From a bacterium (GTDB lineage: Bacteria; Patescibacteriota; Doudnabacteria; UBA920), in contig JAJYWK010000012.1 of assembly GCA_021791515.1 (NCBI GenBank), positions 1-61,203 on the forward strand: 61,203 nucleotides of DNA, written 5' to 3'. Position numbers and translations under genes: made by a program. Positions 2,950 through 56,050 of the stretch are shown piece by piece (within the stretch, counting starts at the first letter, position 1; every line of letters starts with the position of its first letter). The notes beneath the pieces are model-generated. The model was not told the origin of the DNA. It did no database searches and worked only from the letters and a program-made list of their open reading frames with translations.

Positions 2950-4674
2950 TCATTCTACCAATTCCCCGCCAAAGATTTTTAGCGCCTCGGCAACGGCTTC
3001 GGTAGCGCCAACCGCAGTCGCCGGCTGGTTATTTATTACCTGACCTACAACGGACAGCTTCTTGCCAACCAACTCTCCAATTACCGCAACTATCAATTGG
3101 GAATTTTTTGGTATTTCCAGACTCTTTTTATCAAAAGCAAATTTTACGCTTACGATTATTTTGCCGGGTTGGGTTTGCAGGAGCTGGGTATTTTTTAACA
3201 TACTGGCCAACGGCCCGTTAATTTCCTTGACTTTGGCGATTATTTTCGGCCAAGCCGCCTGAATTTCATCTAAGCTGGCCAAATCCCCTGTCTCCACAAC
3301 CCCAACTTCCGACTGCGGAATATTTTCTGATTCAACCCTAACAACAGGAGGTTTGTTAACATCCGACTTTACCGACATCTCAACATCACTTCCAATTATC
3401 CGACCTTCCGACTCACCGACCTTCCGACTCACCGACCTTCCGACATTCCGATTCTCCGACTCACCGATTTGCCGACCTGCCTCGCCGGCAGGCGGGCTTG
3501 CCGACTTCCGAGTTGCCGCCTCTATCCCCGCTATGAGCAACGGCACCTGCGGGACTGGTGAAAACGGCAAATCTTTATACGCCTTTAAAAACAGGCGTGT
3601 GATATAAATTAATTCCGGAACGGAAAAACTTTCTGCAAGCGTTGTAAGTTTCTCTTCATGTTGTTCTGCCAGCCCAAAATGAATTGCGCCTCCGCCGATT
3701 TTGGCAATTAGCACCTTGCGCAAAAATTCCAAAAAGTCGCGGTTAAAAATCGCGTAATCCGCGCCCTTTTGGGCAAGCTGATTCAAAAATTCCGGGACTT
3801 TTTGAGCCTCGGACTGCCGGATAATTTCCAAAAACTCTGCGGCTGTGCCAAAATCGGTAATTCCCAAAAGCTGCTCTGCTTCTTCCAGGCTGGCTAACGT
3901 GCCCAAGGTGGAAACCTTTCCCAAAAGCGACAAAGCGTCTCTTACGCTGCCTTCCGCGTTATTAGCTAACAATTCCAAAATCGAGTTATTAAAATCTACG
4001 CCTTCTTTTTTGCAAACTTCTTTCAGTAAGTCAAAAATATCCTTTGAGCTCAAGGCCTTAAAATCAAAACGTTGGGTGCGGGAAATAATAGTAGGCGGCA
4101 CTTTGCCTATTTCCGTGGTGGCTAAAATAAAAATCGCATGCTTTGGCGGTTCTTCCAAAGTCTTAAGCAGCGCGTTAAACGCGCCCTTAGAAAGCATATG
4201 AACTTCGTCGATAATAAATACTTTATAATTACCTACCGATGGAGAAAACTTTACATGCTCTATTAGTTCGCGAATATTATCCACGCCGGTATTGGATGCC
4301 GCGTCAATTTCCACTAAGTCGATAAAGTTGCCCTGCTCAATCTGCTTGCACACAGAGCACTCCCCACACGCGCCCCCCAAAGCATCAGGCAAAGCCTGCA
4401 CATTATTACTCTCCCCCTTTTGGGGGAGATGTCCGCCTTCGGCGGACAGAGAGGGCTCCGACCCGCCGATACGCCGACTCGCCGATTCACAATTCACCGC
4501 CTTTGCCATAATCCTCGCGACCGATGTCTTTCCCACCCCCCGACTGCCGGTAAACAAATAGGCATGCGCAAAACTGCCCCCAGCTACCTGGTTTTTGAGG
4601 GTTTGAATTATGGATTTTTGGCCCACCACGTCCGCGAAAATTTGGGGGCGATACTTGCGGTATAAAACAGCCAT
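2950..4674 (-). CDS. dnaX: DNA polymerase III subunit gamma/tau
   Basis: MAVLYRKYRPQIFADVVGQ, Walker A GSRGVGKTS, DEVHMLS, SRTQRF. Stop codon is TGA. Confidence 0.9.
   Translation of the reverse strand: MAVLYRKYRPQIFADVVGQKSIIQTLKNQVAGGSFAHAYLFTGSRGVGKTSVARIMAKAVNCESASRRIGGSEPSLSAEGGHLPQKGESNNVQALPDALGGACGECSVCKQIEQGNFIDLVEIDAASNTGVDNIRELIEHVKFSPSVGNYKVFIIDEVHMLSKGAFNALLKTLEEPPKHAIFILATTEIGKVPPTIISRTQRFDFKALSSKDIFDLLKEVCKKEGVDFNNSILELLANNAEGSVRDALSLLGKVSTLGTLASLEEAEQLLGITDFGTAAEFLEIIRQSEAQKVPEFLNQLAQKGADYAIFNRDFLEFLRKVLIAKIGGGAIHFGLAEQHEEKLTTLAESFSVPELIYITRLFLKAYKDLPFSPVPQVPLLIAGIEAATRKSASPPAGEAGRQIGESENRNVGRSVSRKVGESEGRIIGSDVEMSVKSDVNKPPVVRVESENIPQSEVGVVETGDLASLDEIQAAWPKIIAKVKEINGPLASMLKNTQLLQTQPGKIIVSVKFAFDKKSLEIPKNSQLIVAVIGELVGKKLSVVGQVINNQPATAVGATEAVAEALKIFGGELVE
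3401..3480. repeat. Ten tandem 8-nt units CGAYNNNC inside dnaX
   Basis: cgaccttc cgactcac cgaccttc cgactcac cgaccttc cgacattc cgattctc cgactcac cgatttgc cgacctgc, read directly. Translated as ...GESENRNVGRSVSRKVGESEGR... Confidence 0.9.
4411..4490. repeat. Palindromic mosaic modules plus 8-nt repeats inserted in-frame in dnaX
   Basis: CTCCCCCTTTTGGGGGAG, then GTCCGCCTTCGGCGGACAGAGAGGG, then cgacccgc cgatacgc cgactcgc cgattcac. Encodes SRRIGGSEPSLSAEGGHLPQKGE. Confidence 0.85.
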
Positions 4675-8466: not shown

Positions 8467-8472
8467 TATTTA

Positions 8473-17089: not shown

Positions 17090-17170
17090 AAGTTATTTTA
17101 GATTTATGATTTAAGATTTTAGATTTAACTGCAGCCAATCTGCAATCTACAATCTAAAATCTGCAATTAT

Positions 17171-17365: not shown

Positions 17366-17637
17366 ATATAGCTTATTCCTTATAGTCTCCCTCTCCAATT
17401 TCCGCCAGAGGCGGATCTGCCTTAGGCATGACATGGAGAGGGAAATTTCGCGTTAGCGAAATGGGGAGAGGTTAAATCCTTGGGTTCAAACCTCTCTGTC
17501 CAGCTCCACTTTCTATCGGTTATTTATCTTCTTATTAACAATCTTTCCTAATGATGATTATTAACCTCTATTCTATAACCTTCAGAAAGTGGGACTGGAC
17601 ATCTCCCCATGCTTTGGGGAGAAAAATATTGAATGGT
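17366..17637 (-). repeat. Intercistronic mosaic hairpin element, long form (class II)
   Basis: Fills the rplE-stop to rpsN-start gap. Carries an extra CCGCCAGAGGCGG module. Confidence 0.95.
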
Positions 17638-18177
17638 CTATTTCTTAAACGGAAAATTCATTAATCTTAAAAGTTCTCTAACCGGTTCGTCCTGGCCGGC
17701 GTTTGTGACAATTGATACTTCCAAGCCGAAAATATTTTCCAGACTTTCCGAGGAAATTTCCGGGAAAACCAACTGCTCCTTTAAACCCAAATGATAGTTA
17801 CCCCGGCCGTCAAAACCGTCTTTCTTTACGCCCTGGAAATCTCGCACTCTGGGCAACGCAGTGTTAATCAACTTGTCTAAAAAACTATACATTCTAAAAC
17901 CGCGCAAAGTGCAAACAACGCCCACTAACTGATTTTCTCTTACTTTAAAACCGGAAATAGATTTTTTAGCCTTGGTTTTCACCGGCGCCTGGCCGGTTAT
18001 CTTCTTTATATCCTCGGCCACTGCTTCCACTTTTTTCTTATCTTCTTTAATCTTTCCCACGCCAACATTTACAACAATTTTCACGATTTTAGGCACCTGC
18101 ATGACATTCTTAAAACCGAACTTCTGTTTTAAAGCCGGAACAATCTCTTTATTATATTTTTCCTGTAATCTTTCCAT
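17638..18177 (-). CDS. rplE: 50S ribosomal protein L5
   Basis: MERLQEKYNKEIVPALKQKFGFKNVMQVPKI. Start at the internal ATG. Confidence 0.92.
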   Translation of the reverse strand: MERLQEKYNKEIVPALKQKFGFKNVMQVPKIVKIVVNVGVGKIKEDKKKVEAVAEDIKKITGQAPVKTKAKKSISGFKVRENQLVGVVCTLRGFRMYSFLDKLINTALPRVRDFQGVKKDGFDGRGNYHLGLKEQLVFPEISSESLENIFGLEVSIVTNAGQDEPVRELLRLMNFPFKK

Positions 18178-18422
18178 ATATAGCTTATTCCTTATAGTCT
18201 CCCTCTCCAATTCATGGAGAGGGAAATTTCGCGTTAGCGAAATGGGGAGAGGTTAAATCCTTGGGTTCAAACCTCTCTGTCCAGCTCCACTTTCTATCGG
18301 TTATTTATCTTCTTATTAACAATCTTTCCTAATGATGATTATTAACCTCTATTCTATAACCTTCAGAAAGTGGGACTGGACATCTCCCCATGCTTTGGGG
18401 AGAAAAATATTGAATGGTCTAT
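18178..18422 (-). repeat. Intercistronic mosaic hairpin element, long form (class II)
   Basis: Fills the rplX-stop to rplE-start gap. Confidence 0.95.
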
Positions 18423-18740
18423 TTATACTGCCTTACCACTCGCCTTAGCTATTCTCTGCTTTGAACCGTTTTCTAAAAATACAAAATGTACTCTGGAAGG
18501 CTGGCCGGAATTAGGATCCAATAGCATGACTTTAGACGCTGGAAAAGCTGCAAAAAAAGTTATCTTTTTTCCACCCTCGCCGCTTCTTTTGGCTTTCTCA
18601 AAACGGGTGTGCGTATTTACGTTCTCTACTACCAGCTTGCCTGCTTTGGGCAGAACCTTTATAACTTTTCCGGTCTTTCCCTTGTCTTTTCCGGAAAGCA
18701 CTTTTACGGTATCGCCTTTTTTAATTCGTAATTTGTTCAT
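18423..18740 (-). CDS. rplX: 50S ribosomal protein L24
   Basis: KIKKGDTVKVLSGKDKGKTGKV. Confidence 0.92.
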   Translation of the reverse strand: MNKLRIKKGDTVKVLSGKDKGKTGKVIKVLPKAGKLVVENVNTHTRFEKAKRSGEGGKKITFFAAFPASKVMLLDPNSGQPSRVHFVFLENGSKQRIAKASGKAV

Positions 18741-18818
18741 AACTAGATAATTAGTTGGTTAGAGAATTAGAGAAATAGACTTTACTAATTCTCTGTCTCT
18801 CTAATTTTCTGACTCTTT

Positions 18819-19220
18819 CTATATTACTTCCGGAGCTAAGGATAAAATCTTCTTAAACCCATCTTCGTAATAACCTTTTGCCATATCGCGAATCTCTCTG
18901 GGGATGGGCCCAAAAATACGGGTACCGAGCATTTCGTAGTTGCCTTTGGCGTCTTTTTTTACCAATACCCCGGCATTCTCATCAAAGCGGATGTAAGAAC
19001 CGTCTTTGCGGCGGGTTTCTTTGCGCAAACGCACAATCACCGCATAAACTTTATCACCTTTTTTATAAGCGCCGTTCGGAGCGCAAACCCTTACCGATCC
19101 GGCCACCACGTCGCCCACTCTGGCAAAACGGTTGCTGTTCTTGCCGTTTACGCTAAAAACATTAACGACTTTCGCGCCTGTGTTGTCCGCTATTTTAATG
19201 TAGGAACGTACTTGTAACAT
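18819..19220 (-). CDS. rplN: 50S ribosomal protein L14
   Basis: IKIADNTGAK..., operon position. Confidence 0.92.
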   Translation of the reverse strand: MLQVRSYIKIADNTGAKVVNVFSVNGKNSNRFARVGDVVAGSVRVCAPNGAYKKGDKVYAVIVRLRKETRRKDGSYIRFDENAGVLVKKDAKGNYEMLGTRIFGPIPREIRDMAKGYYEDGFKKILSLAPEVI

Positions 19221-19306
19221 AGAATTAATTCAAAATTTAAATATCAAAGTGTAAAATGTAGTTGTCGCTTCGCGACTCTATAATTTTGCATTTTGATTTT
19301 TGCATT

Positions 19307-19552
19307 TTACATTTTCTGAATAACCTTAAACTTCTTCTCTTTACTTATCGGCCTTATTGATTCAATAGTAACTCGATCGCCGACTTTATACTCATTATTT
19401 TCATCATGCGCCTTGAACCTCTTCGAAACCGTGTAGGATTTTTTGTACTTGGAATGGCGCTTTTTAATATCAACCTTGACCACAACAGTCTTGGTCATTT
19501 TATCGGAAACCACCGTACCAATTAATTGCTGTTTTTTGATAGATGTTGTCAT
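19307..19552 (-). CDS. rpsQ: 30S ribosomal protein S17
   Basis: GTVVSDKMTKTVVVKV. Confidence 0.92.
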   Translation of the reverse strand: MTTSIKKQQLIGTVVSDKMTKTVVVKVDIKKRHSKYKKSYTVSKRFKAHDENNEYKVGDRVTIESIRPISKEKKFKVIQKM

Positions 19553-19563
19553 ATTCTTGATAC

Positions 19564-19764
19564 TTACTGCTTACTGCTTACTGCTTTTGAATGTAAATAA
19601 GTCATTATTCTGGCAATGTCTTTTTTGACCACTCCGAGCTCATGGGTATTCTTTAGCTGATTAAGCCGGATTTTAACCCCTAAATCCTGCGCCTTTTCTT
19701 TCAATTCCAAAAGCAGGTTCTTAATTTCAGCGTCTGATTTAGTTTTCAGTTCTTTAAAATTCAT
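19564..19764 (-). CDS. rpmC: 50S ribosomal protein L29
   Basis: 66 aa, ELKTKSDAEIKNLLLELK, operon position. Confidence 0.88.
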   Translation of the reverse strand: MNFKELKTKSDAEIKNLLLELKEKAQDLGVKIRLNQLKNTHELGVVKKDIARIMTYLHSKAVSSKQ

Positions 19765-20007
19765 AATAGCTTATTCCTTATAGTCTCCCTCTCCAATTCA
19801 CGGAGAGGGAAATTTCGCGTTAGCGAAATGGGGAGAGGTTAAATCCTTGGGTTCAAACCTCTCTGTCCAGCTCCACTTTCTATCGGTTATTTATCTTCTT
19901 ATTAACAATCTTTCCTAATGATGATTATTAACCTCTATTCTATAACCTTCAGAAAGTGGGACTGGACATCTCCCCATGCTTTGGGGAGAAAAATAATGTG
20001 CTTCGCG
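19765..20007 (-). repeat. Intercistronic mosaic hairpin element, long form (class II)
   Basis: Fills the rplP-stop to rpmC-start gap. Confidence 0.95.
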
Positions 20008-20424
20008 CTATCCCTGTTTCTCCTTCTCCAAAAATTTACTCTTTACCGGCAGTTTATAGCTGGCCAATCTCATGGCTTCCTGTGCCTGGTCCCGGGTTAC
20101 GCCGTCCATTTCAAACAAAATTTTCCCGCGTTTGACAACAGATACAAAATGATCCACCGCGCCTTTACCGCCACCCATAGGGCTCTCGTTTCCGTGCAAG
20201 GTGACCGGCTTGTCCGCAAACACACGGATCCAAATCTTTCCGCCTCTTTGCACGTAGCGGGTCATGGCTCGCCTGGCCGCTTCAATCTGCCTGGCTGTAA
20301 CCCAAGAACTTTCGGTGGCTTTAAGCGCAAACTGCCCAAAAGCAATCTGCTCGCCGGCCGAGGCCTGTCCTTTGGTATGACCGCGATGATGCTTGCGGTG
20401 TTTAAGTTTCTTAGGGATGAACAT
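20008..20424 (-). CDS. rplP: 50S ribosomal protein L16
   Basis: [15 protein letters not shown]. Confidence 0.93.
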
Positions 20425-20555
20425 ATATCTTTACAATCAATTTCTTAATTTCTATTAATTTCGCGAAAGCCGAAGGCTTGAACTAATTTCATAATAATAT
20501 TGATAGAAATTTGTTCGCCTTTCAGGCTCACGAAATTTGGAAATTGTCTTGAATA

Positions 20556-21206
20556 TTAAACCTTCTGCCTTTCTTCAAACTTATCTCCCTTATAAATCCA
20601 AATCTTTACGCCCACGGTTCCATATGTAGTAAATGCGGTGCTTCTGGCAAAATCAATGTCAGCCCTTAAAGTGTGAAGCGGAATTTTTCCGGAAGACAAA
20701 TGTTCGGTTCTGGCAATGTCCGCGCCGTTAAGCCTGCCGCCAATTGCTACTTTTGCTCCTTTGGCCCCCGCGTTCATTATCTGCTCCAAAGACTGCTTCA
20801 TCAGTTTTCTAAATGCCACGCGCTTTTCCAACTGCTCTACAATTCCGTTGGCTATTACCTGGGCCTGCAAATTAATGTCCCTTACTTCTTCAATGTTGAC
20901 TTTAAGTTCTTTTTTAATGCCAAGCTTGTTCTTTATCTTCTTTTTTAATTCTTCAATTCCGGCTCCGCCTTTGCCAATAATCAGTCCCGGTTTGGTGGTC
21001 TTTACTATTACCGTGATAGTACCATCATTTAAGCGCTCAATGTCAATTCTAACCAAGCCCGCTTTTTTGAGATGTTTTTCCAAATATTCGCGAATCCTCA
21101 CGTCATCCTGCAGTTGCTTGGCAAAACCGTGCCTTGCAAACCACCTGGATTTCCAGGATTCGGTAATATTAAGCCGTAATGAAGTTGGATTAATCTTATG
21201 TCCCAT
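20556..21206 (-). CDS. rpsC: 30S ribosomal protein S3
   Basis: MGHKINPTSLRL. Start at the internal ATG. Confidence 0.92.
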   Translation of the reverse strand: MGHKINPTSLRLNITESWKSRWFARHGFAKQLQDDVRIREYLEKHLKKAGLVRIDIERLNDGTITVIVKTTKPGLIIGKGGAGIEELKKKIKNKLGIKKELKVNIEEVRDINLQAQVIANGIVEQLEKRVAFRKLMKQSLEQIMNAGAKGAKVAIGGRLNGADIARTEHLSSGKIPLHTLRADIDFARSTAFTTYGTVGVKIWIYKGDKFEERQKV

Positions 21207-21375
21207 ATATAGCTTATTCCTTATTCTCTCCCTCTCCAAGACTTGGGGAGGGAAATTCCACCGAAGGTGGAATGGGGAGAGGTTGATATTAATTTAACCG
21301 TTCAAACCTCTCTGCCCTCGCTTCGATCGGGCATCTCCCCAAGCTTTGGGGAGAATTATAATGAATTTTCTATGT
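21207..21375 (-). repeat. Intercistronic mosaic hairpin element, short form (class III)
   Basis: Fills the rplV-stop to rpsC-start gap. Confidence 0.9.
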
Positions 21376-21960
21376 TTATTCTCCACTCTTTCTATTAAAT
21401 AACCTTCTCTTATTCGCTGCCTTGCTCAATTTCATTTGCTGTTCGGTCGTCTTGCCGACCTCGCTGTGTCTGCCCATTTCCTTTGGCGCTTTTTTGGCCG
21501 CCGCGTCCGCTTTGTCTGCATTTTCGGAAGTTTGTTCTTTCTTGTCTTCCACTTTCTTTAAGAAGCTCATTTTGGTCTTGCTGGCTTTGCCTTTCTTTCT
21601 TTCTTCCAGTACCAAATTTACATGGCAAAGTTTTCTGCGAATTACAAAAGCGCTTCCGCGGGCCCGGGGAAAATACCGCTTCATGGTTTGCCCCATGTCC
21701 GTGGAAATGCTCTTAATAAAAAGATGTTCGGGTGAAAGCGAAAAATTATTTTTGGCGTTGGCAATGGCGGATTTAATTAACCTGATGAGTAGCGGCGCAG
21801 CCTTTTTGTTGGCATGCTGCAATTGGACAATCGCGTCAACCGCGTTCATCCCGCTCACTAAACCGGTCACCAGGCGCATCTTTCTCGGGGCAATTCTAAG
21901 CTGACGGGCAGAAGCTCGGACTAATTTTGGAGATTCGGTTGTGGATGTCTTATTGGCCAT
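21376..21960 (-). CDS. rplV: 50S ribosomal protein L22 with ~75-aa Lys-rich C-terminal extension
   Basis: ASARQLRIAPRKMRLV core; 194 aa total. Confidence 0.9.
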   Translation of the reverse strand: MANKTSTTESPKLVRASARQLRIAPRKMRLVTGLVSGMNAVDAIVQLQHANKKAAPLLIRLIKSAIANAKNNFSLSPEHLFIKSISTDMGQTMKRYFPRARGSAFVIRRKLCHVNLVLEERKKGKASKTKMSFLKKVEDKKEQTSENADKADAAAKKAPKEMGRHSEVGKTTEQQMKLSKAANKRRLFNRKSGE

Positions 21961-21997
21961 TACTTTATAAACTTTATAACTTTATGAACTTGATAAA

Positions 21998-22330
21998 CTA
22001 TTTCTTTTCCGGCTCTTTCGCCGCATTCAGCTTTGCCTTTTCCGCTTCCGCTGCCGCGGCTTCCTGTTCTTTGGCCATCTTACCGCCGTGGCGGGTAAAT
22101 TTGCGGGTTGGGGAAAATTCGCCTAGCTTATGTCCGACCATATTTTCCGTAACAAATACCGGGGTGTGCGCCCTGCCGTTGTGCACCAAAAAAGTAAAGC
22201 CTACAAATTCAGGCGCAATAGAGCAAGCGCGGGACCAAGTTTTAATTTGATCCTTGCCTGCCTTGCCGTTCTGTACTTTCTTAAGTACTCGCGGGTCTAC
22301 GTATGGTCCTTTTTTAGAACTTCTTGACAT
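21998..22330 (-). CDS. rpsS: 30S ribosomal protein S19 (C-terminal Ala/Lys/Glu tail)
   Basis: [12 protein letters not shown]. Confidence 0.92.
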
Positions 22331-22426
22331 AAATGTAATACGAAACTACTAATTAAATACGAACCTGCGAAATGTTATGCGAAATTTCGAATTATTTTCG
22401 TTGTTTCGCATGCGCATTTTCGCATG

Positions 22427-23263
22427 CTACTTGCTTCTCCTTTGCACTATCATCTGATTAGAATATTTCTTCTTTAATCTCGTCTTAACCCCTAACGCAT
22501 GCTTGCCCCACGGGGTTTTTGGATATTTCATACCAATTGGGTTGTGTCCTTCACCACCACCGTGCGGGTGATCTACCGGGTTCATAACTTTGCCGCGAAC
22601 GGTCGGCCGCCAGCCCATATTGCGCATCCGGCCTGCCTTGCCGATTCTCACATTCATCCAATCTTGGTTCGCCAACTGGCCAACTGTGGCCAATGCCTCT
22701 TCTTTTACTTTACGAATTTCGCTGCTGGGAAGTTTAAGCAACGCGTACCCGCCTTCCAGCGTCTGTAGTGTAGCATATCCGCCGGCGCTGCGCGCGATTT
22801 TGCCGCCCTGTCCTGGAATCAATTCAATGTCGTGGATTAATGTTCCAACCGGAATATTTTTTAAAGCCAATCGGTTGCCGGGCAAAATTTCCGCTGTCTC
22901 GCCGTACATAACTTTATCGCCGACTTTCATGCCCTGCGCGGTTAACATATAGCGTTTACTGCCGTCTTTATAGGAAATCAGGGAAATAAAGCTGCTTCTG
23001 GTCGGATCGTACTCAATGGTTAAAACTTTGGCTGGAATATTCTTTTTGTCGCTCCTGGAAAAATCCACAATCCGGTATTTGCGCTTGGCGCCGCCGCCTT
23101 GATGGCGCACGGTAATTTTGCCGCTGTTGTTGCGGCCGGCCGGCCTGGCTTTGCTTACAATCAAACCTTTGGGGGTTTTCTTGAATTTACGCAAAACCGA
23201 ATAATCCGTAACCGAATGGATACGTCTGCCTGCGCTGGTTGGTTTGTAGAGTTTTACGGCCAT
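22427..23263 (-). CDS. rplB: 50S ribosomal protein L2
   Basis: MAVKLYKPTSAGRR ... HPHGGGEG. Start at the internal ATG; the upstream 39 codons are repeat sequence. Confidence 0.92.
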   Translation of the reverse strand: MAVKLYKPTSAGRRIHSVTDYSVLRKFKKTPKGLIVSKARPAGRNNSGKITVRHQGGGAKRKYRIVDFSRSDKKNIPAKVLTIEYDPTRSSFISLISYKDGSKRYMLTAQGMKVGDKVMYGETAEILPGNRLALKNIPVGTLIHDIELIPGQGGKIARSAGGYATLQTLEGGYALLKLPSSEIRKVKEEALATVGQLANQDWMNVRIGKAGRMRNMGWRPTVRGKVMNPVDHPHGGGEGHNPIGMKYPKTPWGKHALGVKTRLKKKYSNQMIVQRRSK

Positions 23264-23408
23264 AAATAGATTATTCTTTATCGTATTTCCCCTCTCCAAT
23301 TCCTGGAGAGGGATCAGGGGAGAGGTTAAATACCTGGTTTCAAACCTCTCTGTCCCGCCTTCGGCGGGACATCTCCCCAAGCTTTGGGAGAAAAATAATG
23401 AATGAGCT
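23264..23408 (-). repeat. Intercistronic mosaic hairpin element, short form (class III)
   Basis: Fills the rplW-stop to rplB-start gap. Central hairpin GTCCCGCCTTCGGCGGGAC. Confidence 0.9.
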
Positions 23409-23807
23409 TTACACGACGTCTGTTAGTCCCTTAATTGTATCTCCCTTTTTCAGGGTCACTATTGCTTTTTTAAAACCGGAGGTTTTGCCCGCGATGCGTC
23501 CAAAATTCTTTAATTTCCCTTGGGTATTTACCATATTAACCTGAATAACCCGGACTTTATAATGCTTTTCCACCGCTTTTTTTACTTCCACTTTATTGGC
23601 GGATTTTAAAACGGCAAAAACATACTTATTCAAACTCACCAACTTGCCGGCTTTTTCGGAAATTCTGGGCTGTAATAAAACGGCCGGGATTTTGAGTTCA
23701 GGGACCTTATCAGATTTAGATGCATCCGAAGAAACGGCATCCAAAGCAGATGTTTCTTTTTTCTGATCATCTTTTTGATCATCGGATTTTTTTGAAAATA
23801 AGGCCAT
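23409..23807 (-). CDS. rplW: 50S ribosomal protein L23 with acidic N-terminal extension
   Basis: Operon position; C-terminal two thirds L23-like (LLQPRISEKA...KKAIVTL). Confidence 0.85.
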   Translation of the reverse strand: MALFSKKSDDQKDDQKKETSALDAVSSDASKSDKVPELKIPAVLLQPRISEKAGKLVSLNKYVFAVLKSANKVEVKKAVEKHYKVRVIQVNMVNTQGKLKNFGRIAGKTSGFKKAIVTLKKGDTIKGLTDVV

Positions 23808-27437: not shown

Positions 27438-27773
27438 AAACTTTATACCTTTCTTTTTGATGAGTCAGTATGGATATTAATCCAATATGCCGATTCACCA
27501 ATCTGCCCGAGACCCCCTCACCGCTGCAGCGTATCGATCCGCCACAGTGCCGAGGGTATCTCTTTCTTTCCTTTCGGAATCCAGGGCAATAATTAATTTG
27601 TTAGTCAAAACTTATTTTAAAGATATTTAGCAGGTTTGTCAACCTACAATCCTAACACGGATATTACGGATTGGTCACGCCTGCCTGCCGGCAGGCAGGG
27701 AACTACTGATATCTGCGGATTTGATATCCGTAGTAATCCGTTTTTCCGTGTACAATCAGCAGATCCGTGTTAA

Positions 27774-31838: not shown

Positions 31839-31990
31839 AATAGATTTTCCTTACAATTCTCCTCTCTCCAATTCTTGGAGAGAGGCCGGGAGAGAGGTTA
31901 AAACCTAAGTTTCAAACCTCTCTGTCCCGCCTTCGGCGGGACATCTCCCCTCCGCCAGCTGGCGGACTTGGGGAGAATAATAATGTAAAA
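31839..31990 (-). repeat. Intercistronic mosaic hairpin element, short form
   Basis: Fills the rpsL-stop to rpsG-start gap; modules GTCCCGCCTTCGGCGGGAC and CCGCCAGCTGGCGG. Confidence 0.9.
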
Positions 31991-32404
31991 CTATTTTCTC
32001 TTCGCTCCATACTTGCTTCTTGAGCGTTTCCGACCGTCAACGCCTAATGTATCCAACTTCCCTCTTACAATGTGATAGCGCACGCCGGGCAAATCTTTTA
32101 CCCTACCGCCACGAATCATAACCACGCTGTGTTCCTGCAAGTTGTGGCCAATGCCGGGAATATAGGCAATTACTTCCATCCCGTTGGTGAGTTTCACTTT
32201 GGCAACTTTGCGCAAAGCAGAGTTCGGCTTTTTTGGCGTGGTGGTATACACCTTTAAGCACACGCCGCGCATAAACGGCGCTCCGGTTTTTATGTGCAGG
32301 GTTTTATTTTTGATTAAGTTGACGCGGCGCATAAGCGCAGGGCTTTTGCTCTTGTACTTAAACGGATGCCGCCCTTTTCGAACTAATTGGTTGATTGTTG
32401 GCAT
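31991..32404 (-). CDS. rpsL: 30S ribosomal protein S12
   Basis: [13 protein letters not shown]. Start at the internal ATG; the upstream 67 codons of the tracked ORF are repeat sequence. Confidence 0.93.
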
Positions 32405-32590
32405 AAATAGTCCATTCCTTATTCGGTTCCCCTCTCCAATTTCCGCCAGAGGCGGATCTGCCTTAGGCATGACATGGAGAGGGGTCAGGGGAGAGGTTAA
32501 AAACTTAGATTTCAAACCCCTCTGTCCCGACGAGTCGGGACATCTCACCTCCGCCAGCTGGCGGACTTGGGGAGAAAAATAATGATTAAA
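32405..32590 (-). repeat. Mosaic hairpin element in the rpsL leader
   Basis: Same head (GGTTCCCCTCTCCAATT...) and tail modules as the intercistronic copies; abuts the rpsL ATG. Confidence 0.9.
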
Positions 32591-38921: not shown

Positions 38922-39163
38922 CGGGCTGTAGCCCCATAGTAGTTCCGGCAAGCCGGAACACTACGGGGTAAATATAGCTTGCCCTGTTAAATATTTGCCC
39001 TTGTACGGGATATAGTATAATGGTAGTACGCGTGCATGGGGTGCATGTAGCCCCGGTTCGATTCCGGGTATCCCGACCACGGGCAAATAATATTTAACGG
39101 GGTGAAGTAGTACGCGTCCATGGGGTGGATGTAGTCTGGGTTCGATTCCCAGCAGCCCGACCA
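38922..39163 (+). other. Disrupted/outer tRNA-Pro(GGG)-like gene enclosing the intact tRNA-Pro
   Basis: CGGGCTG (38922-38928) is perfectly complementary to CAGCCCG (39151-39157), which is followed by ACCA. The 3' part has the anticodon arm CGTCC-ATGGGGT-GGATG and the T arm CTGGG-TTCGATT-CCCAG. The D region is interrupted by hairpin elements and tRNA-Pro. Confidence 0.5.
39006..39079 (+). tRNA. tRNA-Pro (anticodon GGG), CCA encoded
   Basis: Hand-folded cloverleaf: CGGGATA/TATCCCG acceptor, GTAT/GTAC D stem, CGTGC-AUGGGGU-GCATG anticodon arm, CCCGG-TTCGATT-CCGGG T arm, A73, CCA. Confidence 0.9.
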
Positions 39164-39270
39164 TGACGAAAATTACTACAGGGTAAAGGTGCGTGCTCGC
39201 CCCGTAGCATCCCGCCGATGGCGGGATTGCTACCGGGGTAGTCCGAGTTCGATTCTCGGCATCCCGACCA
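39164..39270 (+). other. tRNA-derived fragment (T arm + acceptor 3' strand + CCA) fused to a long hairpin
   Basis: ...CCCCGTAGCATCCCGCCGATGGCGGGATTGCTACCGGGG TAGT CCGAG TTCGATT CTCGG CATCCCG ACCA. No matching 5' acceptor strand found. Confidence 0.6.
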
Positions 39271-39348
39271 CGGGCAAATATTTCACTGTTCGTTTCCCAG
39301 TCTACCCCGTAGCCAACCGAAGGTTGTGCTACCGGGGCAGCCCGACCA
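39271..39348 (+). other. tRNA-derived fragment (acceptor 3' strand + CCA only) fused to a hairpin
   Basis: GGGCAAATATTT... CCCCGTAGCCAACCGAAGGTTGTGCTACCGGGG CAGCCCG ACCA. Confidence 0.55.
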
Positions 39349-46735: not shown

Positions 46736-46820
46736 GTCATTCCTGCGAAAGCAGGAATCTTTTTAAATTTTCAAAAATCCTTCACTCAACCCATCTACCG
46801 GCAGGCAGGTTCAGTATGAC
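46736..46820. repeat. GTCATYCC-type MITE-like element
   Basis: GTCATTCCTGCGAAAGCAGGAAT ... CCGGCAGGCAGGTTCAGTATGAC. Confidence 0.75.
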
Positions 46821-46871
46821 ATTAAAGATTAAAATAATGGAATTTGATTTGAAAATAATATTTATTCATGG

Positions 46872-49619: not shown

Positions 49620-52600
49620 TTATATTACAAGATTTATCAATCTGTCCTTCACAAAAATCACTCGCTTAACGCTTTCCCCCACCAAAGCTTGTTTTACCGC
49701 CGGCAACTGCATAACCAGTTCTTTTACCGCCGTTTCCTCGCTTCCGCTTGGCGCTGTAATTTTACCTTTTACCCGGCCGTTAATCTGTAAAACAATTTCC
49801 ACTGTCTTATCAATTATCATAACCGGATCAAACGAAGGCCAACTCGCTGTTTGCAAAGTTGTCTGACTCTTTGACTTTCCGATTCTCTGATATAATTCCT
49901 CCGAAATATGCGGCGCAAACGGATACAGTAAAACTAAAAACTTTTTTACCGACTCTAGGGTAATAAATTCATCTTTCACTTCGTTATGGAATTCCATAAA
50001 CGCGGAAATGCAGGTATTAAACCTAAACGCCTCTATGTCTTCGGTAATTTTCTTGATCAAACGATTCAAACTTCTTTCGACTTTCTCTGTATCTTTTACT
50101 TCCGACTCACCGACTTCCGACCTTCCGACCTTCCGACCCGCCGATTTCTGATGCGGCGCCTCTGCAATTTCGTTCACCCAGCCCCAAACCCTGTCTAAAA
50201 ATCTGCGCACTCCCACCACGCCCTTATTATTCCACGAAACCATGGCCTCATGCGGACCTAAAAACAATTCATACATCCTTAAAGTATCCGAGCCATAAGT
50301 TTTTACAATATCGTCCGGATTTACCACATTACCCCGGCTCTTGGACATTTTTTCGCCATCTGGCCCCAAAACAATTCCGTGCGGATGGCGTTTGGCATAA
50401 GGTTCGCTCTGGGATACCAAACCTTGGTCATACAAAAACAAATTCCAAAAACGCGAGTATAGCAAATGCAAAGTGGTGTGTTCCATACCGCCAAAATAAA
50501 CATCAACCGGCGTCCAATACTTCTGTTTTTTCAACGACGCAAATTCTTTGGCGTTTTTGGAATCCGCGTATCTTAACCAATACCAGGAACTTCCCGCCCA
50601 TTGCGGCATGGTGTTGGTTTCGCGCCAGGCCAATTTTTTGCATTTTGGACATTTAGTTTTTACCCATTTTTCAATATCTGCCAAAGGCGACTCGCCGGTG
50701 CCGGTGGGTTCGTATTTTTTTACGTTAGGTAATTTAACAGGCAAATCTTTTTCCGGCACCGGCACAGTACCGCAATCTTCACAGTGAATAAGGGGGATTG
50801 GCTCGCCCCAATAGCGCTGGCGGGAAAATACCCAGTCACGGAGCTTGTAATTTATAACTCTTTTTCCATAACCCTTTTCTACCATATAATCCATAATCTT
50901 TTCCGTCGCCGCGTGAATATCCATTCCATTCAAAAAATCGGAATTAACCATAATGCCTTCGTCTTCCTGAACTTGATCTAGCGATGTTATGTCGCCTGCA
51001 TCATTGGCGTTTTTTTGCACCACTCTTTTAACTTCCAATTTGAAAACCTGGGCAAATTCAAAATCGCGCTTGTCGTGCCCGGGCACGCCAACTACCGCCC
51101 CTGTCCCCACGTTGCCTAAAACGTAATCCGCCACATAAAGCGGCATTTTAAAATTATTTAAAGTATTTATACAATACAAACCCGTAAAGACCCCTGTCTT
51201 TTTTCTATTTTCAGCCGTTCTATCCATATCGGCTGCCTCCACTGCCTGCTTTTGATACTGTTCAATTTCCTTCCAAATTTTTTCTTCAATGCCTAAAATA
51301 TTCCTGTCTTTTAAAAGCGGATGTTCCGGCCCCAGCACTACAAAAGTCGCTCCAAAGTTGGTGTCAGGACGGGTGGTAAAGCAAGTAATTTGTGGTAACA
51401 AAATATTTAAAATTAAAGGTTCTTCCTCATTGGTAAAATGCGGCTTCAAGCCATTCTGCTCAATAAGGGCGCCATTTAATTTTTGACTTAAAATTTTTCC
51501 CTGTTCAATAGGAATAGCAAAGTCAGTTGGATCACTAAGCACGGTGATTGATTTGGCTTTATTTTTTATAGTTTCAAAATCAAACTTCCAATTAAACTTG
51601 GCGTGATAATTTCTGGGTCGATCTTTAAATCGTGGCTCAGTAAAACCACCGGCTAAAACTAATCCTGCTATTTTAATAGGTAGTTTTTCCAAAACTTTCA
51701 TTGCCACCACTGCGCCCAAACTGTGTCCAAAAAGAATAGTGTTTTCATCAAACTGACAATTTTGCAATACAAAACTAACCTGTTCTTCCTCCGTAGGCTC
51801 GCTTGCGTTAGGCAGCTGCGGAGCTTGATATTTAACACCTTGCTTATTTAGTTCCTTTTTAAGCGAAGGAAAGAATATTCCATCCGGGGTGCCCTTAAAC
51901 CCATGCAATAATACATAATTATTTTTTAAGTCAAAATTATAGGTGATATTTATCCCTGTCTTTTTTCCAATCCAATTCTCCTGCTGGAGTTTTACCGCCT
52001 CCGGCCACTCGGGCAGATTTTTTAAACCTTCCAATAATTTTTCCGCGTACGCGGTAATTTTTAAATACCACTGCCTAAGTTCTTTCTTTTCAACAGTTGT
52101 TCCGCAGCGTTCGCACTTGCCGTCTATAACTTCTTCGTTGGCAAGACCGGTTTTGTCCTTGGGGCACCAATTAATTACGCCTGTAGACTCGTAAGCCAAA
52201 CCCTTTTTAAAAAATTGCAAAAACAGCCATTGCGTCCATTTGTAGTAGCTTGGATCGGTCGTGTTTACCTCTCTGCTAAAATCAAAACTCAACCCCCAAC
52301 TAAGCATCTGTTTTTTGGCGTTTTTAATGTTGGTTTCCGTGGTTTTGGATGGATGCACACCCATTTTTATGGCATAGTTTTCCGCTGGCAAACCAAAAGC
52401 ATCCCAGCCAATTGGAAAAAGCGTTTCAAAACCTTTCATCCGGTGATAACGGCTATAAACATCACCGGCGACATAAGGCCTTAAATGTCCCATGTGCAAA
52501 CCCGCGCCGGAAGGATACGGAAATTCCACCAGCACGTATTTTTTTAGCTTTCTGGAAAAATCTTTGGCAAAAAAAGTTTTTTTTGTCAGCCAAAATTTTT

Positions 52601-52655
52601 GCCACTTAGCTTCTATTTTTTTATGATTGTATTTATTCATATTAGGCCTGTTCAC
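49620..52655 (-). CDS. leuS: Leucyl-tRNA synthetase with an inserted alpha/beta-hydrolase domain
   Basis: HMGH, TTRPDT, GTGAVVGVPGHDKRDFEFA, KMSKS. 1011 aa. Confidence 0.95.
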   Translation of the reverse strand: MNRPNMNKYNHKKIEAKWQKFWLTKKTFFAKDFSRKLKKYVLVEFPYPSGAGLHMGHLRPYVAGDVYSRYHRMKGFETLFPIGWDAFGLPAENYAIKMGVHPSKTTETNIKNAKKQMLSWGLSFDFSREVNTTDPSYYKWTQWLFLQFFKKGLAYESTGVINWCPKDKTGLANEEVIDGKCERCGTTVEKKELRQWYLKITAYAEKLLEGLKNLPEWPEAVKLQQENWIGKKTGINITYNFDLKNNYVLLHGFKGTPDGIFFPSLKKELNKQGVKYQAPQLPNASEPTEEEQVSFVLQNCQFDENTILFGHSLGAVVAMKVLEKLPIKIAGLVLAGGFTEPRFKDRPRNYHAKFNWKFDFETIKNKAKSITVLSDPTDFAIPIEQGKILSQKLNGALIEQNGLKPHFTNEEEPLILNILLPQITCFTTRPDTNFGATFVVLGPEHPLLKDRNILGIEEKIWKEIEQYQKQAVEAADMDRTAENRKKTGVFTGLYCINTLNNFKMPLYVADYVLGNVGTGAVVGVPGHDKRDFEFAQVFKLEVKRVVQKNANDAGDITSLDQVQEDEGIMVNSDFLNGMDIHAATEKIMDYMVEKGYGKRVINYKLRDWVFSRQRYWGEPIPLIHCEDCGTVPVPEKDLPVKLPNVKKYEPTGTGESPLADIEKWVKTKCPKCKKLAWRETNTMPQWAGSSWYWLRYADSKNAKEFASLKKQKYWTPVDVYFGGMEHTTLHLLYSRFWNLFLYDQGLVSQSEPYAKRHPHGIVLGPDGEKMSKSRGNVVNPDDIVKTYGSDTLRMYELFLGPHEAMVSWNNKGVVGVRRFLDRVWGWVNEIAEAPHQKSAGRKVGRSEVGESEVKDTEKVERSLNRLIKKITEDIEAFRFNTCISAFMEFHNEVKDEFITLESVKKFLVLLYPFAPHISEELYQRIGKSKSQTTLQTASWPSFDPVMIIDKTVEIVLQINGRVKGKITAPSGSEETAVKELVMQLPAVKQALVGESVKRVIFVKDRLINLVI
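50103..50149. repeat. 8-nt CGAYNNNC tandem units inside leuS
   Basis: cgactcac cgacttc cgaccttc cgaccttc cgacccgc cgatttct; encodes SAGRKVGRSEVGESE. Confidence 0.88.
51390..51923 (-). other. ~178-aa alpha/beta-hydrolase (YdeN/RBBP9-like serine hydrolase) domain within LeuRS (aa ~245-422)
   Basis: YVLLHGFKG ... LFGHSLGA (nucleophile elbow) ... VLAGGF ... VLSDPTDFAIP (Asp) ... KPHF (His). Sits between NITYNF and ITCFTTRPDT. Confidence 0.7.
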
Positions 52656-52746: not shown

Positions 52747-53736
52747 CTAGGGAGAAGGTAAATTAAACAATTTTTTTGCATTATTGGTGGTCAGTTCCGC
52801 AATTTCTCCGGCTGATAATCCTTTAATTTCCGCTACCTTCTCCGCAACAAATTTCACATAGGCAGGCTCGTTTCTTTTTCCGCGCATAGGCACTGGCGAC
52901 AAATAAGGGCTATCTGTTTCTAAAAGTATTCTATCAAGCGGCGTAAGTTTAACCAACTTTTCCATATTACCAGTCTTGTCAAAGGTAATTATTCCATTAA
53001 AACTAACATACGCGCCGCGGTCTAAAAATTTTTGCAAAGCTTCTGGACTGCCGGTAAAACTGTGGACTTCAAACTTTAGCGGTTTGTCATCCCGACCGAC
53101 TGAACCTGCCTGCCGGCAGGCAGGTGCGTCTGAGGGTGAGTGGAGGGATCCCTTAACTTTTGATAAATCCCTAACTTTAAGGGATTCCTCGTTCGGATGC
53201 ACTCTCTCGGAATGACGCCAAGGGGAAGCTTCTTCATCCAAAATTTTTATTAAATCATCAAACAATTCCTCGTTGCCTTTTTCCGGCCGGCTGTGGATTA
53301 CTAAAACTTTATTTACTTCCTTGGCTAATTTAACCTGGAGTCTAAAAACTTCTTTTTGCTTTTCTTTAATTGTCCGATGAAGTTCCTTGTCTTCCGGCAG
53401 ACGATAATAGTCCAGCCCACACTCTCCAATCGCGACTACCTTTTCGTTTAATGCCAATTTTTTATACTCTTCGTAATTAAAATTTTCTTCTCTGCTTTTA
53501 AAATGCGTTTCTTCCTCGTCCACATATTGCGAGTGAGTGTGTTCGGGATGCAGCCCCACGGCTGCATAAACGCCGGTCTCAAACTGTTCTGCCAATTCCA
53601 CAGCCTGCCGGCTGGTATCTATTTGCGAGCCGATGTTGATTACAAAAACTCCCGCATCCAAAGCCCTAGCTAGAGTTTCTTTAGCGTCGTCCTTAAAGGA
53701 GCGAAAATTAACATGCGCGTGGGTGTCAATTAGCAT
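52747..53736 (-). CDS. TatD-family metal-dependent hydrolase
   Basis: MLIDTHAHVNF, GECGLDY, ETDSPYLSP. Confidence 0.9.
   Translation of the reverse strand: MLIDTHAHVNFRSFKDDAKETLARALDAGVFVINIGSQIDTSRQAVELAEQFETGVYAAVGLHPEHTHSQYVDEEETHFKSREENFNYEEYKKLALNEKVVAIGECGLDYYRLPEDKELHRTIKEKQKEVFRLQVKLAKEVNKVLVIHSRPEKGNEELFDDLIKILDEEASPWRHSERVHPNEESLKVRDLSKVKGSLHSPSDAPACRQAGSVGRDDKPLKFEVHSFTGSPEALQKFLDRGAYVSFNGIITFDKTGNMEKLVKLTPLDRILLETDSPYLSPVPMRGKRNEPAYVKFVAEKVAEIKGLSAGEIAELTTNNAKKLFNLPSP
53086..53216. repeat. GTCATYCC-type MITE-like element inserted in-frame in the TatD-like gene
   Basis: GTCATCCCGACCGACT...CCTGCCTGCCGGCAGGCAGG...GGGATCCCTTAAC..TTAAGGGATTCC...CTCGGAATGAC; encodes ~44 extra aa. Confidence 0.85.
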
Positions 53737-54391
53737 CTTTAGCGGGTTTTTTAATTAAATCGAAAATAATTATTTTATTATATTTGGTATCATAAGCCAT
53801 ATTATGCGTATCCACATCATAAAAATGAGGCCTTAATATTCTGACTATTTCGTCTTTTTTTTGTATTAAATATTCATATTCAGCCTGCTTATCTGGCAAT
53901 AATCTTATCCTGCCCATATAATCCTCCAAGTTTTCCCGCAAACCGTCGTCCCATCTGGAAACTAAAAATGTTTCGTAATTATCCTCAAAACCCACATGAT
54001 ATTCCAATACGCTAACGCCAGAAATTCCTTCCAAAAGTTTTCCAGCTTCGGACATTGCGGTTATTTCCCCTGCCCCACCTCCAAAATCCTGAAGTTCTTT
54101 GGTCGGCGTCCTTTTTACAAAATAAATGTTGTCTTCCAGCTGCATTCTGTAATAATATCTTGATCTTCCGCTTGAACCGATCTTCCGGCCCACCATTTCC
54201 ATCTTCATACCATTTTTTTCTTGTTCTCCGGATAATTTCGCTGCCCTGTCAATCAATTCCACAAAAATTCCGCGGTTGGGCCGGGTGAGCAAATGGCCGA
54301 TTTCGGCATTTCTAACCAATTTCTTACCGCGCCCAAATTCAACTTCAACATATTTTCCTCCGTCAAATTCTCTTCTTTTCGGAAAACTCAT
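53726..54391 (-). CDS. Hypothetical protein, possibly atypical kinase-like
   Basis: 221 aa; FYDVDTHNMAYD...IIIFDL faintly resembles the HxDxxxxN...D catalytic pattern. Overlaps both neighbours. Confidence 0.5.
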   Translation of the reverse strand: MSFPKRREFDGGKYVEVEFGRGKKLVRNAEIGHLLTRPNRGIFVELIDRAAKLSGEQEKNGMKMEMVGRKIGSSGRSRYYYRMQLEDNIYFVKRTPTKELQDFGGGAGEITAMSEAGKLLEGISGVSVLEYHVGFEDNYETFLVSRWDDGLRENLEDYMGRIRLLPDKQAEYEYLIQKKDEIVRILRPHFYDVDTHNMAYDTKYNKIIIFDLIKKPAKDAN

Positions 54392-55937: not shown

Positions 55938-56050
55938 CACTCCGAGTCCCGCAACAAGCGGGACGAGGAATCTCTTAACACCCGACAATTATCAAATGAT
56001 AAGGGATCCCTCGGCTCGTCCCGCCTGCGGCGGGACTCGCTCGGGATGAC
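55938..56050. repeat. GTCATYCC-type MITE-like element upstream of metG
   Basis: ...GAGTCCCGCAACAAGCGGGAC...TAAGGGATCCCTCGG...GTCCCGCCTGCGGCGGGACTCGCTCGGGATGAC. Confidence 0.8.

Follow-up and report, generated by a model that had tools for sequence, protein, structure and literature searches.

Small serine hydrolases of the YdeN/RBBP9 family share a fold of about 180 residues in which an HG motif, a GHSxG nucleophile elbow, an aspartate and a histidine follow one another in this order, as in YdeN of B. subtilis (1uxo) and human RBBP9 (2qs9, 7oex), and the known members are free-standing proteins. Here we describe a hydrolase of this kind that is instead nested inside a domain of another protein, the leucyl-tRNA synthetase (LeuRS) encoded by leuS on contig JAJYWK010000012.1 (assembly GCA_021791515.1) of a bacterium of the Doudnabacteria (Patescibacteriota); positions 1 to 61,203 of this contig are the window of the present analysis. 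The hydrolase, referred to below as the guest, lies in connective peptide 1 (CP1; PF13603), the editing domain of LeuRS. CP1 is itself a hydrolytic domain inserted in frame into the Rossmann fold of the synthetase by way of a two-strand beta linker, but unlike the guest it is of ancient origin, is found in every LeuRS and is integrated functionally. In a 2026 survey of 213 domain-insertion events PF13603 was always a guest and never a host (PMC13114784), whereas here CP1 hosts a further insertion, so that three domains are nested one in the next.

A second, unrelated catalytic domain is likewise present on other aminoacyl-tRNA synthetases (aaRS), such as the isoleucyl-tRNA synthetases (IleRS) that bear a GNAT domain (NCBIfam NF040702) as well as the methionyl-tRNA synthetase (MetRS) from Mycoplasma penetrans, whose aminotransferase domain is an N-terminal appendage with a demonstrated role in substrate supply (PMC7694997). 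The guest differs from these in being internal, in lying in the editing domain, in changing its site and type from one close allele to the next, and in occurring also in hosts that are not synthetases. Inteins offer a different comparison, as they too are foreign in-frame elements of essential proteins placed beside conserved motifs, with a patchy distribution that is discordant with that of the host and with several sites and hosts; unlike them, the guest has no HINT fold, no splicing residues and no homing endonuclease, and its own catalytic triad is conserved. Since both the HINT fold and the residues of a splicing junction are missing, the guest presumably stays in the mature protein. In Rickettsia, palindromic elements are said by Ogata and co-workers, writing in 2000, to be selfish DNA translated in frame inside protein genes. 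The likeness here is that of an in-frame insertion, within a reduced genome, into loops at the surface of essential proteins; those elements are, however, short, non-enzymatic and recognizable as DNA repeats, while the guest is a full enzyme without recognizable repeat termini.

All residue numbers below are those of a frame of 1011 codons, unless the numbering of the 1006-aa product is stated. The leuS open reading frame (ORF) runs unbroken on the minus strand from a GTG at 52655 (49620..52655), and the length of 1011 aa given in an earlier note on this DNA holds as a mechanical reading from that GTG; in the database gene call, as in the relatives, the start codon is an ATG five codons in, and the product has 1006 aa (Table 1). 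Two database proteins of 1006 aa, P0037 and P0304, which derive from independent assemblies, are 100% identical to this product. The score of LeuRS with the TIGR00396 leuS_bact equivalog model is 982.5 bits, against a cut-off of 548.4. In an alignment of 85 LeuRS sequences (A2), residues T422, T423, R424 and T427 of the Thr-rich motif and G512, T513, G514, H522, D523, R525 and D526 of the GTG...HDxRD motif (1006-aa numbering) are invariant, as are the positions of the synthetic site listed in Table 1. The stretch ITCFTTRPDT occupies aa 423-432, and GTGAVVGVPGHD, within the GTG...HDxRD motif, aa 517-528. The earlier note had the editing and synthetic motifs retained, and in this it was right; every motif that it quoted (HMGH, GHSLG, LKPHF, TTRPDT, KMSKS and others) is found where it placed it. 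PF13603 matches aa 422-591 over profile positions 22-184 of 185 (E 6e-51); because the match begins at aa 422 with profile position 22, the insert lies inside CP1 as defined by Pfam, after the first strand. Judged by its sequence, the host is an otherwise canonical LeuRS of bacterial type with all synthetic and editing motifs kept. As the editing residues of CP1 are intact, nothing in them suggests that the guest makes up for a lost editing site.

The position of the insertion can be read by comparison with Thermus thermophilus LeuRS (1h3n). Residues 6-242 correspond to Thermus residues 1-237 and residues 423-764 to 243-579, and about 180 residues (aa 243-422) stand in place of five (Thermus 238-242). 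The spacing from NWIG to TTRPDT is 196 residues here and 21 in close relatives without an insert. The insertion point is between the first beta-strand of CP1, at the tip of the hairpin, and the strand that leads into TTRPDT, in agreement with the earlier note, which had placed the insert in CP1 just ahead of the Thr-rich motif. In the model of the full protein calculated with AlphaFold2 (AF2), the strand GINITYNFDLKNN appears as E226-236 (1006-aa numbering), with a predicted local distance difference test (pLDDT) score of about 89-96. The junctions of the guest read ...KNN/YVLLHG and ...LLPQ/ITCF, with YVLLHGF (aa 247-253) at its start. The span 51390-51923, first given for the insert, has the position right but encodes aa 245-422, and the domain proper is slightly shorter (aa 247-422). 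These boundaries are also the extent of two free-standing proteins of the same clade, P0161 and P0165, which are 48-50% identical to the guest.

The proposal that the insert is a YdeN/RBBP9-like hydrolase is borne out by sequence profiles and by fold prediction alike. Taken in isolation, the insert scores 26.6 bits with Pfam PF06821 (Ser_hydrolase; cut-off 22, E 6e-6, profile positions 1-147 of 172), followed by generic alpha/beta-hydrolase models; within full-length LeuRS the same match reaches 21.6 bits, slightly below the cut-off, and in relatives it rises as high as 87 bits. A profile of the insert and 32 free-standing homologs of about 185 aa (alignment A1) matches YdeN of B. subtilis with E 2e-46 and human RBBP9 with E 1e-32, in both cases over the full length. 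The AF2 model of the insert, calculated on A1, has a pLDDT of 92.5 and a predicted template-modelling (TM) score of 0.90, with a beta-alpha-beta pattern. When this model was compared by Foldseek with the Protein Data Bank (PDB), YdeN 1uxo and RBBP9 7oex, 2qs9 and 9fcr were the best matches (TM 0.84-0.86); the remaining matches were larger esterases with TM no higher than 0.78, and the top 50 were all alpha/beta hydrolases. In the model of full-length LeuRS (mean pLDDT 86, predicted TM score 0.74) the blocks of the guest reach 92-98 and both flanking host strands are confident. The guest is thus predicted, from these models, to fold as an independent alpha/beta domain. No homology of the insert to the AlaX/tRNA_SAD, YbaK/INS, D-aminoacyl-tRNA deacylase (DTD) or CP1 families was found with Pfam, with NCBIfam or among the Foldseek top 50, and none to S66/MccF peptidases with Pfam or in the sequence and fold searches of the PDB.

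Six residues are invariant in A1, namely G252, H311, S312, G314, D378 and H406. The Ser-Asp-His set that had been described as intact is indeed so, with the correction that the aspartate invariant in the family is D378, not D375. Further motifs conserved in the guest clade are LPN..P..EQV.FVL.NC.FDENT, W.FDF..IK and PHF....EP.IL. On sequence grounds the insert is a complete serine hydrolase of the YdeN/RBBP9 family (PF06821) with its triad Ser312-Asp378-His406 intact, and it is predicted to be active.

Table 1. Positions of the features of leuS and of the nested hydrolase in the window.
Feature	Coordinates	Strand	Remarks
leuS coding sequence	49620..52640	-	1006 aa from ATG; TIGR00396 leuS_bact match
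HMGH (class I HIGH motif)	52485..52496	-	aa 54-57; H49/G51/H52 (1006-aa numbering) invariant in A2
First CP1 hairpin beta-strand, GINITYNFDLKNN	51918..51956	-	aa 234-246; upstream junction of the guest
Guest hydrolase domain	51390..51917	-	aa 247-422, 176 aa; Pfam, profile, AF2, Foldseek
Oxyanion-hole region His251-Gly252 (HG), after beta-1	51900..51905	-	G252 invariant in A1
Nucleophile elbow GHSLG	51714..51728	-	aa 310-314; Ser312 codon 51720-51722; S68 of A1
Catalytic acid Asp378, second D of LSDPTD (aa 373-378)	51522..51524	-	D134 of A1, invariant
Catalytic His406, in LKPHF (aa 403-407)	51438..51440	-	H162 of A1, invariant
Thr-rich editing motif TTRPDT	51360..51377	-	aa 427-432; five residues past the end of the guest
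CP1 editing domain, remainder	50856..51389	-	aa 423-600; PF13603 and confident AF2 model
GTG...HDxRD editing motif (HDKRD here)	51063..51107	-	aa 517-531, including Asp528 and Asp531
Equivalent of site B, loop after the HDxRDFEFA motif	50958..51023	-	aa 545-566; empty here
Equivalent of site C, HCEDCG knuckle downstream of CP1	50769..50783	-	aa 625-629; empty here
KMSKS	50337..50351	-	aa 769-773; invariant in A2
Anticodon-binding domain PF08264	49731..50078	-	aa 860-975; Pfam match

Two other features of this leuS were observed. The leucine-specific domain is missing, as aa 765-768 (region 50337-50360) replace Thermus residues 580-636. In addition, 50106-50153 (aa ~835-850) holds tandem copies of an 8-nt unit (GTCGGAAG-like when read on the coding strand), whose in-frame translation, ...GRKVGRSEVGESEV..., falls in a loop of LeuRS that is modelled with low confidence; this repeat recurs at 3373-3484, inside the ORF 2950..4674.

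The architecture is not peculiar to this locus. We collected the 120 nearest LeuRS from NCBI, JGI, ENA and Logan, some of them named Candidatus Doudnabacteria or Patescibacteria, and distinguished three places of insertion, calling the hairpin position of the present insert site A and two further loops sites B and C (Table 1), site C being located after the second Cys of the HCxxC knuckle. A hydrolase is present in 93 of the 120 sequences, at site A in 88, at site C in four (P0074, P0085, P0133 and P0102) and at site B only in one, and is absent from 27; two sequences carry two copies. The Ser and the His are kept in all 88 true guests at site A, of which 77 have Asp and 11 have Glu as the acid, and the lone exception to the triad among the aligned rows is a mis-anchored sequence that has no hydrolase at that site. 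Of the 89 aligned rows (the 88 true copies and the mis-anchored one), 79 have the H and 85 the G of the HG region. Among LeuRS-embedded copies at large the Ser is kept in 139 of 139. To judge from these alignments, the catalytic triad of the guest is under purifying selection.

A wider view was obtained from an exhaustive HMMER search with the insert against 1.84 billion cluster representatives, which returned 1332 proteins at E<=1e-3. The best 150 of these include 64 long proteins, of which about 46 are LeuRS or fragments of LeuRS; their cores are only 35-57% identical to the present one, and the guest-bearing LeuRS thus come from very divergent lineages. A search with the insert alone had initially missed the copies embedded in LeuRS, and it was the full-length and exhaustive searches that revealed the spread of hosts. 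In the GTDB genome collection a guest at site A was also found in a LeuRS of Gracilibacteria (genetic code 25) and in two other LeuRS of the candidate phyla radiation (CPR); the scan of that collection, which combined full LeuRS with a universal motif pattern, returned mostly ordinary LeuRS of Firmicutes and others, and only loci L002, L004, L008 and L013 were usable. One JGI record bears the automatic name 'leucyl-tRNA synthetase/predicted alpha/beta hydrolase family esterase'. The earlier note had implied that such a fusion is rare and had suggested an alignment of orthologs; the counts just given, together with the JGI label, speak against rarity, since the insert is widespread rather than unique. 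No published description of a hydrolase in LeuRS was found in the full-text literature that could be searched.

In the syntenic relative L001 (gene order MetRS-TatD-LeuRS) leuS has the same insert with the same triad. This gene (5669-8775 of ERZ25039512 contig_93273, 372 kb) shows three frame changes, which may be either errors of long-read assembly or the mark of a pseudogene. At locus L090 (2275-5280 of a 137-kb contig in GCA_038740375.1) a LeuRS of bacterial type with a guest at site A was observed in an archaeal context (S17e, tRNA-intron endonuclease); the gene call there begins wrongly at the guest, and the ORF is continuous.

The same clade is also nested in proteins other than LeuRS, with host domains on both sides. 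These hosts are valyl-tRNA synthetase (ValRS; P0199 and P0241), alanyl-tRNA synthetase (AlaRS; P0208), SecA (P0175), TsaD/Kae1 (P0205), EngA (P0254), the methionyl-tRNA formyltransferase Fmt (P0226) and UvrA (P0225), to which an HD-domain protein (P0238) can be added as a fusion; they belong to CPR bacteria and DPANN-like archaea. The Kae1 host (loci L085 and L086; 11 contigs) lies among archaeal ribosomal-protein genes (L7Ae, S28e, L24e). Wherever they are nested, these guests begin 2-3 residues before beta-1 and end after the same last helix, which is the extent of the free-standing gene. The Ser, Asp and His are kept in 20 of 20 copies outside LeuRS, eight of which come from the named hosts, the HD fusion included, and the rest from unclassified proteins of 253-423 aa. 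The closest kin of the guests in these other hosts are the guests at site A of LeuRS. In P0225 and P0226 we noted Gly-to-Trp artefacts of the kind that is typical when genes of code-25 organisms are read with an incorrect table. Altogether, guests of this clade are present in no fewer than three loops of LeuRS and in loops of seven or more further families of housekeeping proteins.

Conversely, the loops of LeuRS accept domains of other kinds. In relatives site B may hold a hydrolase, and in some it holds a NUDIX, HAD_2 or Methyltransf_23/11 domain, in place of the hydrolase or alongside it. LeuRS with NUDIX, HAD_2, Methyltransf_23/11 or GNAT domains in their CP1 loops are P0058, P0069, P0099, P0106, P0108, P0120, P0126, P0212, P0215 and P0224; they reach up to 1318 aa when the hydrolase is also present, and variants with a GNAT together with a hydrolase at site A exist. 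In P0217 (NCBI MCX6741383.1, Candidatus Parcubacteria) an IS200-like Y1 (HUH) transposase is inserted in frame at site A (aa 269-374), and this LeuRS carries a hydrolase too, further downstream. Capture of neighbouring genes was considered as the source of such domains, since free NUDIX and methyltransferase genes lie a few kb from leuS at insert-less loci, and was rejected by blastp: the NUDIX and methyltransferase guests of site B match the neighbour genes only across the Nudix box and show no close kinship with them. As a separate observation, extra peptides (such as SSVIPAKAGIQ and RRHSEGAQPTEE) adjoin the guest at site A in P0052, P0155, P0096 and P0077, and look like translated palindromic repeat DNA in the same loop.

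The relationship between guest and host was studied by comparing pairwise distances in 69 full-length LeuRS with a guest at site A. The three modules of the core are well correlated with each other (r 0.63-0.72), while the correlation of the guest to the core (r 0.14-0.19) and to CP1 (r 0.16) is low. When LeuRS sequences are ranked by the identity of their core to the present one, alleles without a guest, with another subtype and with a similar guest interleave: P0042 (core identity 0.88) has a guest of a different subtype (0.39), P0067 and P0063 (0.87) have no insert, P0038 (0.86) has a similar guest (0.62), and the guest of P0088, at 0.70, resides on a distant host (core about 0.76, CP1 0.42, C-terminal domain 0.41). 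Because presence, absence and subtype interleave in this way among the closest host alleles, the guest has been gained, lost and swapped repeatedly. As for the other sites, the guests of P0085 and P0133 at site C are nearest to two different subtypes of site A, while free-standing genes are the nearest kin of the guests in P0074 (site C) and P0156 (site B) and of one copy of the pair in P0125, and therefore several independent acquisitions as well as intragenic moves are indicated. The G+C content at third codon positions (GC3) is 0.31 in the guest and 0.44-0.46 in the rest of leuS, and the overall G+C content (GC) of the guest is also lower; the difference in GC3 has the same sign in L002, L004, L008 and L013, and is strongest in L013 (0.33 versus 0.58). 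These values are consistent with a foreign origin, but as proof they are ambiguous, since less conserved segments of the gene have lower GC3 in general. In a separate observation, the identity of CP1 (50856-51389) among relatives is bimodal (0.68-0.81 or 0.36-0.47) and the type of CP1 is independent of the subtype of the guest; as the identity of the catalytic core stays high (0.75-0.89), whole CP1 domains seem, from these sequences, to be exchanged between LeuRS alleles.

The lower GC and GC3 of the insert could be accounted for by an artefact, be it a chimeric assembly, an intron or intein left unspliced, or a pseudo-insert in decay, and the three frame changes in the leuS of L001 could be taken in the same sense. 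Against this, a single open frame crosses the insert, independent assemblies contain the identical protein, the architecture is shared by 93 of 120 relatives from four sources, the triad is under purifying selection, and the gene has neither an Rfam intron or RNA family nor intein junction residues or a HINT fold. An artefact is therefore excluded for practical purposes. No Rfam covariance model matches in 49620-52655, and in the whole window only two tRNAs reach the gathering score. Several more specific candidates were tried and rejected: a group I or group II intron in leuS, in view of the Rfam result; an intein, as the junctions do not show the expected residues (Cys/Ser/Thr first, His-Asn at the end, Cys/Ser/Thr at +1), the fold is that of an alpha/beta hydrolase and there is no intein match in Pfam; and a LeuRS split at the guest junction, as P0183 is cut by the end of its contig and P0162 has a mis-called start in a continuous ORF. 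Many database proteins begin at the first residues of the guest.

We incline, as a little better than an even chance, to the interpretation that the guest is an autonomous enzyme simply tethered to LeuRS rather than an integrated second editing site, because it occurs also in SecA, UvrA and EngA, the same loops of LeuRS take unrelated enzymes, and close alleles exist without it. In such a scheme a whole YdeN/RBBP9 hydrolase, of the size of a free-standing gene, would have become nested in frame at the tip of the first CP1 hairpin, the loops of CP1 being highly permissive docking places; embedding in an essential gene would provide it with expression and with protection of its reading frame, its own activity would be kept by selection, and it would spread between alleles by recombination through the conserved flanks. 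By analogy with RBBP9, the guest would most plausibly be a hydrolase of alpha-aminoacyl esters or amides, acting autonomously on substrates with a free alpha-amine. Valacyclovir is the L-valyl ester of a nucleoside analogue. RBBP9 activates it, according to the title of Shenoy 2020 as cited in PMC7730578, and as a serine aminopeptidase it yields acyl-enzymes of Leu/Ile, Met, Phe, Tyr and Trp, for which a free alpha-amine is needed (PMC8866121). The idea of a second proofreading module, put forward in the earlier note, is weakened by the presence of the guest in SecA, UvrA, EngA, TsaD, Fmt, AlaRS and ValRS and of unrelated domains in the same loops, and the unrelated moonlighting esterase that it offered as the other option is closer to what the evidence favours.

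A number of points weigh against the interpretation of a tethered, autonomous enzyme. No other host comes near LeuRS in frequency (about 46 of the 64 long matches), and LeuRS has been colonised independently at three loops and bears the guest in very divergent lineages, which suggests a functional link rather than permissiveness alone, although this enrichment comes from a search seeded with a guest derived from LeuRS; most of the other hosts (ValRS, AlaRS, Fmt, TsaD) handle tRNA or its aminoacylated 3' end, and suggest the same. Since the C-terminus of the guest is about five residues from the Thr-rich motif, the guest must, from its place in the chain, lie close to the editing pocket. The chemistry attributed to the family comes from human RBBP9, its only characterised member. 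The trough in GC3 can also be explained by weaker constraint. At the junctions of the insert there are no terminal repeats or target-site duplications but only short scattered repeats, and the arms of one perfect inverted repeat of 13 nt (51481-51493 / 51924-51936) do not enclose the insert. Phage or viral carriers are unsupported as well, with only a distant ydeN of an Acinetobacter phage (24% identity) and two marginal IMG/VR fragments. A related and more daring proposal is that the guest is a gene-sized, in-frame, non-splicing mobile cassette that settles in loops beside conserved motifs of essential proteins in CPR and DPANN organisms. It would then have the lifestyle of an intein without protein splicing, with CP1 of LeuRS as its main reservoir, and NUDIX, HAD, GNAT, methyltransferase and Y1-transposase cassettes would use the same loops; it would move by way of recombination across conserved flanks, and because a frameshift kills the host gene, such a cassette could not be lost by simple inactivation. 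This we regard as possible but on the doubtful side.

In the main rival interpretation the guest would be functionally coupled to its host, as a hydrolase of aminoacyl esters (aminoacyl-tRNA) or of aminoacyl-adenylates beside the CP1 pocket that would clear mischarged or unwanted species missed by CP1, do the same job in ValRS, AlaRS and Fmt, and act in trans when free. The short link of about five residues to the Thr-rich motif, the repeated and independent colonisation of LeuRS at three loops that are all in or beside CP1, the over-representation of hosts that bind the aminoacylated end of tRNA (LeuRS, ValRS, AlaRS, Fmt), the acceptance by RBBP9 of aminoacyl groups of the Leu/Ile, Met and aromatic kinds, provided that the alpha-amine is free, with the hydrolysis of valacyclovir as stated in the title of Shenoy 2020, and the strict conservation of the triad all agree with such a role. 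We nevertheless consider it unlikely, if by no means negligible, as SecA, UvrA and EngA do not handle aminoacyl-tRNA, the editing residues of CP1 are intact and leave nothing to replace, the acceptance of NUDIX, HAD, methyltransferase, GNAT and transposase domains by the same loops points to permissive loops, close LeuRS alleles lack the guest, and its subtype is swapped freely with respect to the type of CP1, which argues against a co-adapted interface. Another interpretation is substrate supply, in which the guest, as an aminopeptidase or amino-acid esterase, would free hydrophobic amino acids including Leu from scavenged peptides for the LeuRS, ValRS or AlaRS to which it is tethered, in an organism auxotrophic for amino acids. 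The serine aminopeptidase activity of RBBP9 and its Leu/Ile, Met, Phe, Tyr and Trp acyl-enzymes (PMC8866121) would suit this purpose, LeuRS, ValRS and AlaRS all use aliphatic amino acids, and there are a precedent in the aminotransferase domain of M. penetrans MetRS (PMC7694997) and a lack of many biosynthetic pathways in CPR bacteria (PMC11665869). Supply is improbable in our opinion, given that SecA, UvrA, EngA and TsaD gain nothing from the channelling of amino acids, that the guest has been placed in the editing domain, which in the sequence is remote from the synthetic pocket, and that free diffusion of amino acids makes tethering of little kinetic value. Still less probable, to the point of being a long shot, is protection in cis, in which the guest would inactivate aminoacyl-adenylate mimics or poisons of the editing site of LeuRS in the manner of MccF/MccE immunity. 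The classes of guests (serine hydrolase, GNAT, NUDIX, HAD, methyltransferase) do overlap with immunity enzymes against Trojan-horse inhibitors of aaRS: MccE2, a GNAT, acetylates aminoacyl-nucleotides and MccF, a serine peptidase, cleaves them, and TM84, which derives from agrocin 84, targets LeuRS (PMC8323819). NCBIfam, moreover, has a curated model 'isoleucine--tRNA ligase, N-acetyltransferase domain-containing'. The argument is purely analogical, though; the guest matches YdeN/RBBP9 and generic alpha/beta hydrolases only and not S66/MccF, it is found in hosts that are not aaRS, and no gene cluster for an inhibitor lies near the leuS loci examined.

Some other features of the window were noticed. 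A palindrome, CCTGCCTGCCGGCAGGCAGG, with an adjacent 55-nt element is located at 53098-53192, in frame in tatD (52747..53736), where it is translated as the peptide ...APACRQAGS...; there are copies at 6847-6881, 27680-27714, 46790-46824 and 55963-56017, the sequence being otherwise intergenic, and its presence in tatD looks like selfish DNA of the type of repetitive extragenic palindromes or miniature inverted-repeat transposable elements (REP/MITE) in a coding gene. An ORF of 221 aa (53726-54391, minus strand) lies between metG and tatD and shares a few bases with each; at its position L082 has a methyltransferase-like gene and L001 nothing. Dense intergenic repeat modules separate short ORFs at 14390-23420 and 31860-32550; they form families D1-D10, with lengths up to 237 nt, 3-18 copies and a hairpin CCCCTCTCCAA...TGGAGAGGG. 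Finally, tRNA-Pro(GGG) lies at 39006-39079, and after it come two stretches that repeat part of its 3' end (39131-39173 and 39238-39280) and look like leftovers of integrations into the tRNA gene.

A serine hydrolase nested in CP1 with an intact triad, shared by hundreds of uncultivated lineages, is absent from the searchable literature, and its guests are hidden in annotation inside calls of 'leucine--tRNA ligase'. The loops of LeuRS described here are naturally validated permissive insertion sites and may as such be of use in protein engineering. Should aminoacyl esters be the substrates of the guest, one synthetase would have a third hydrolytic checkpoint. Should the guest, on the other hand, be a passenger that acts autonomously, ultra-small bacteria and archaea would be using their essential proteins as carriers of whole enzyme cassettes that are gained, lost and swapped, and this would bear on how reduced genomes keep accessory functions and on the evolution of domain insertions.

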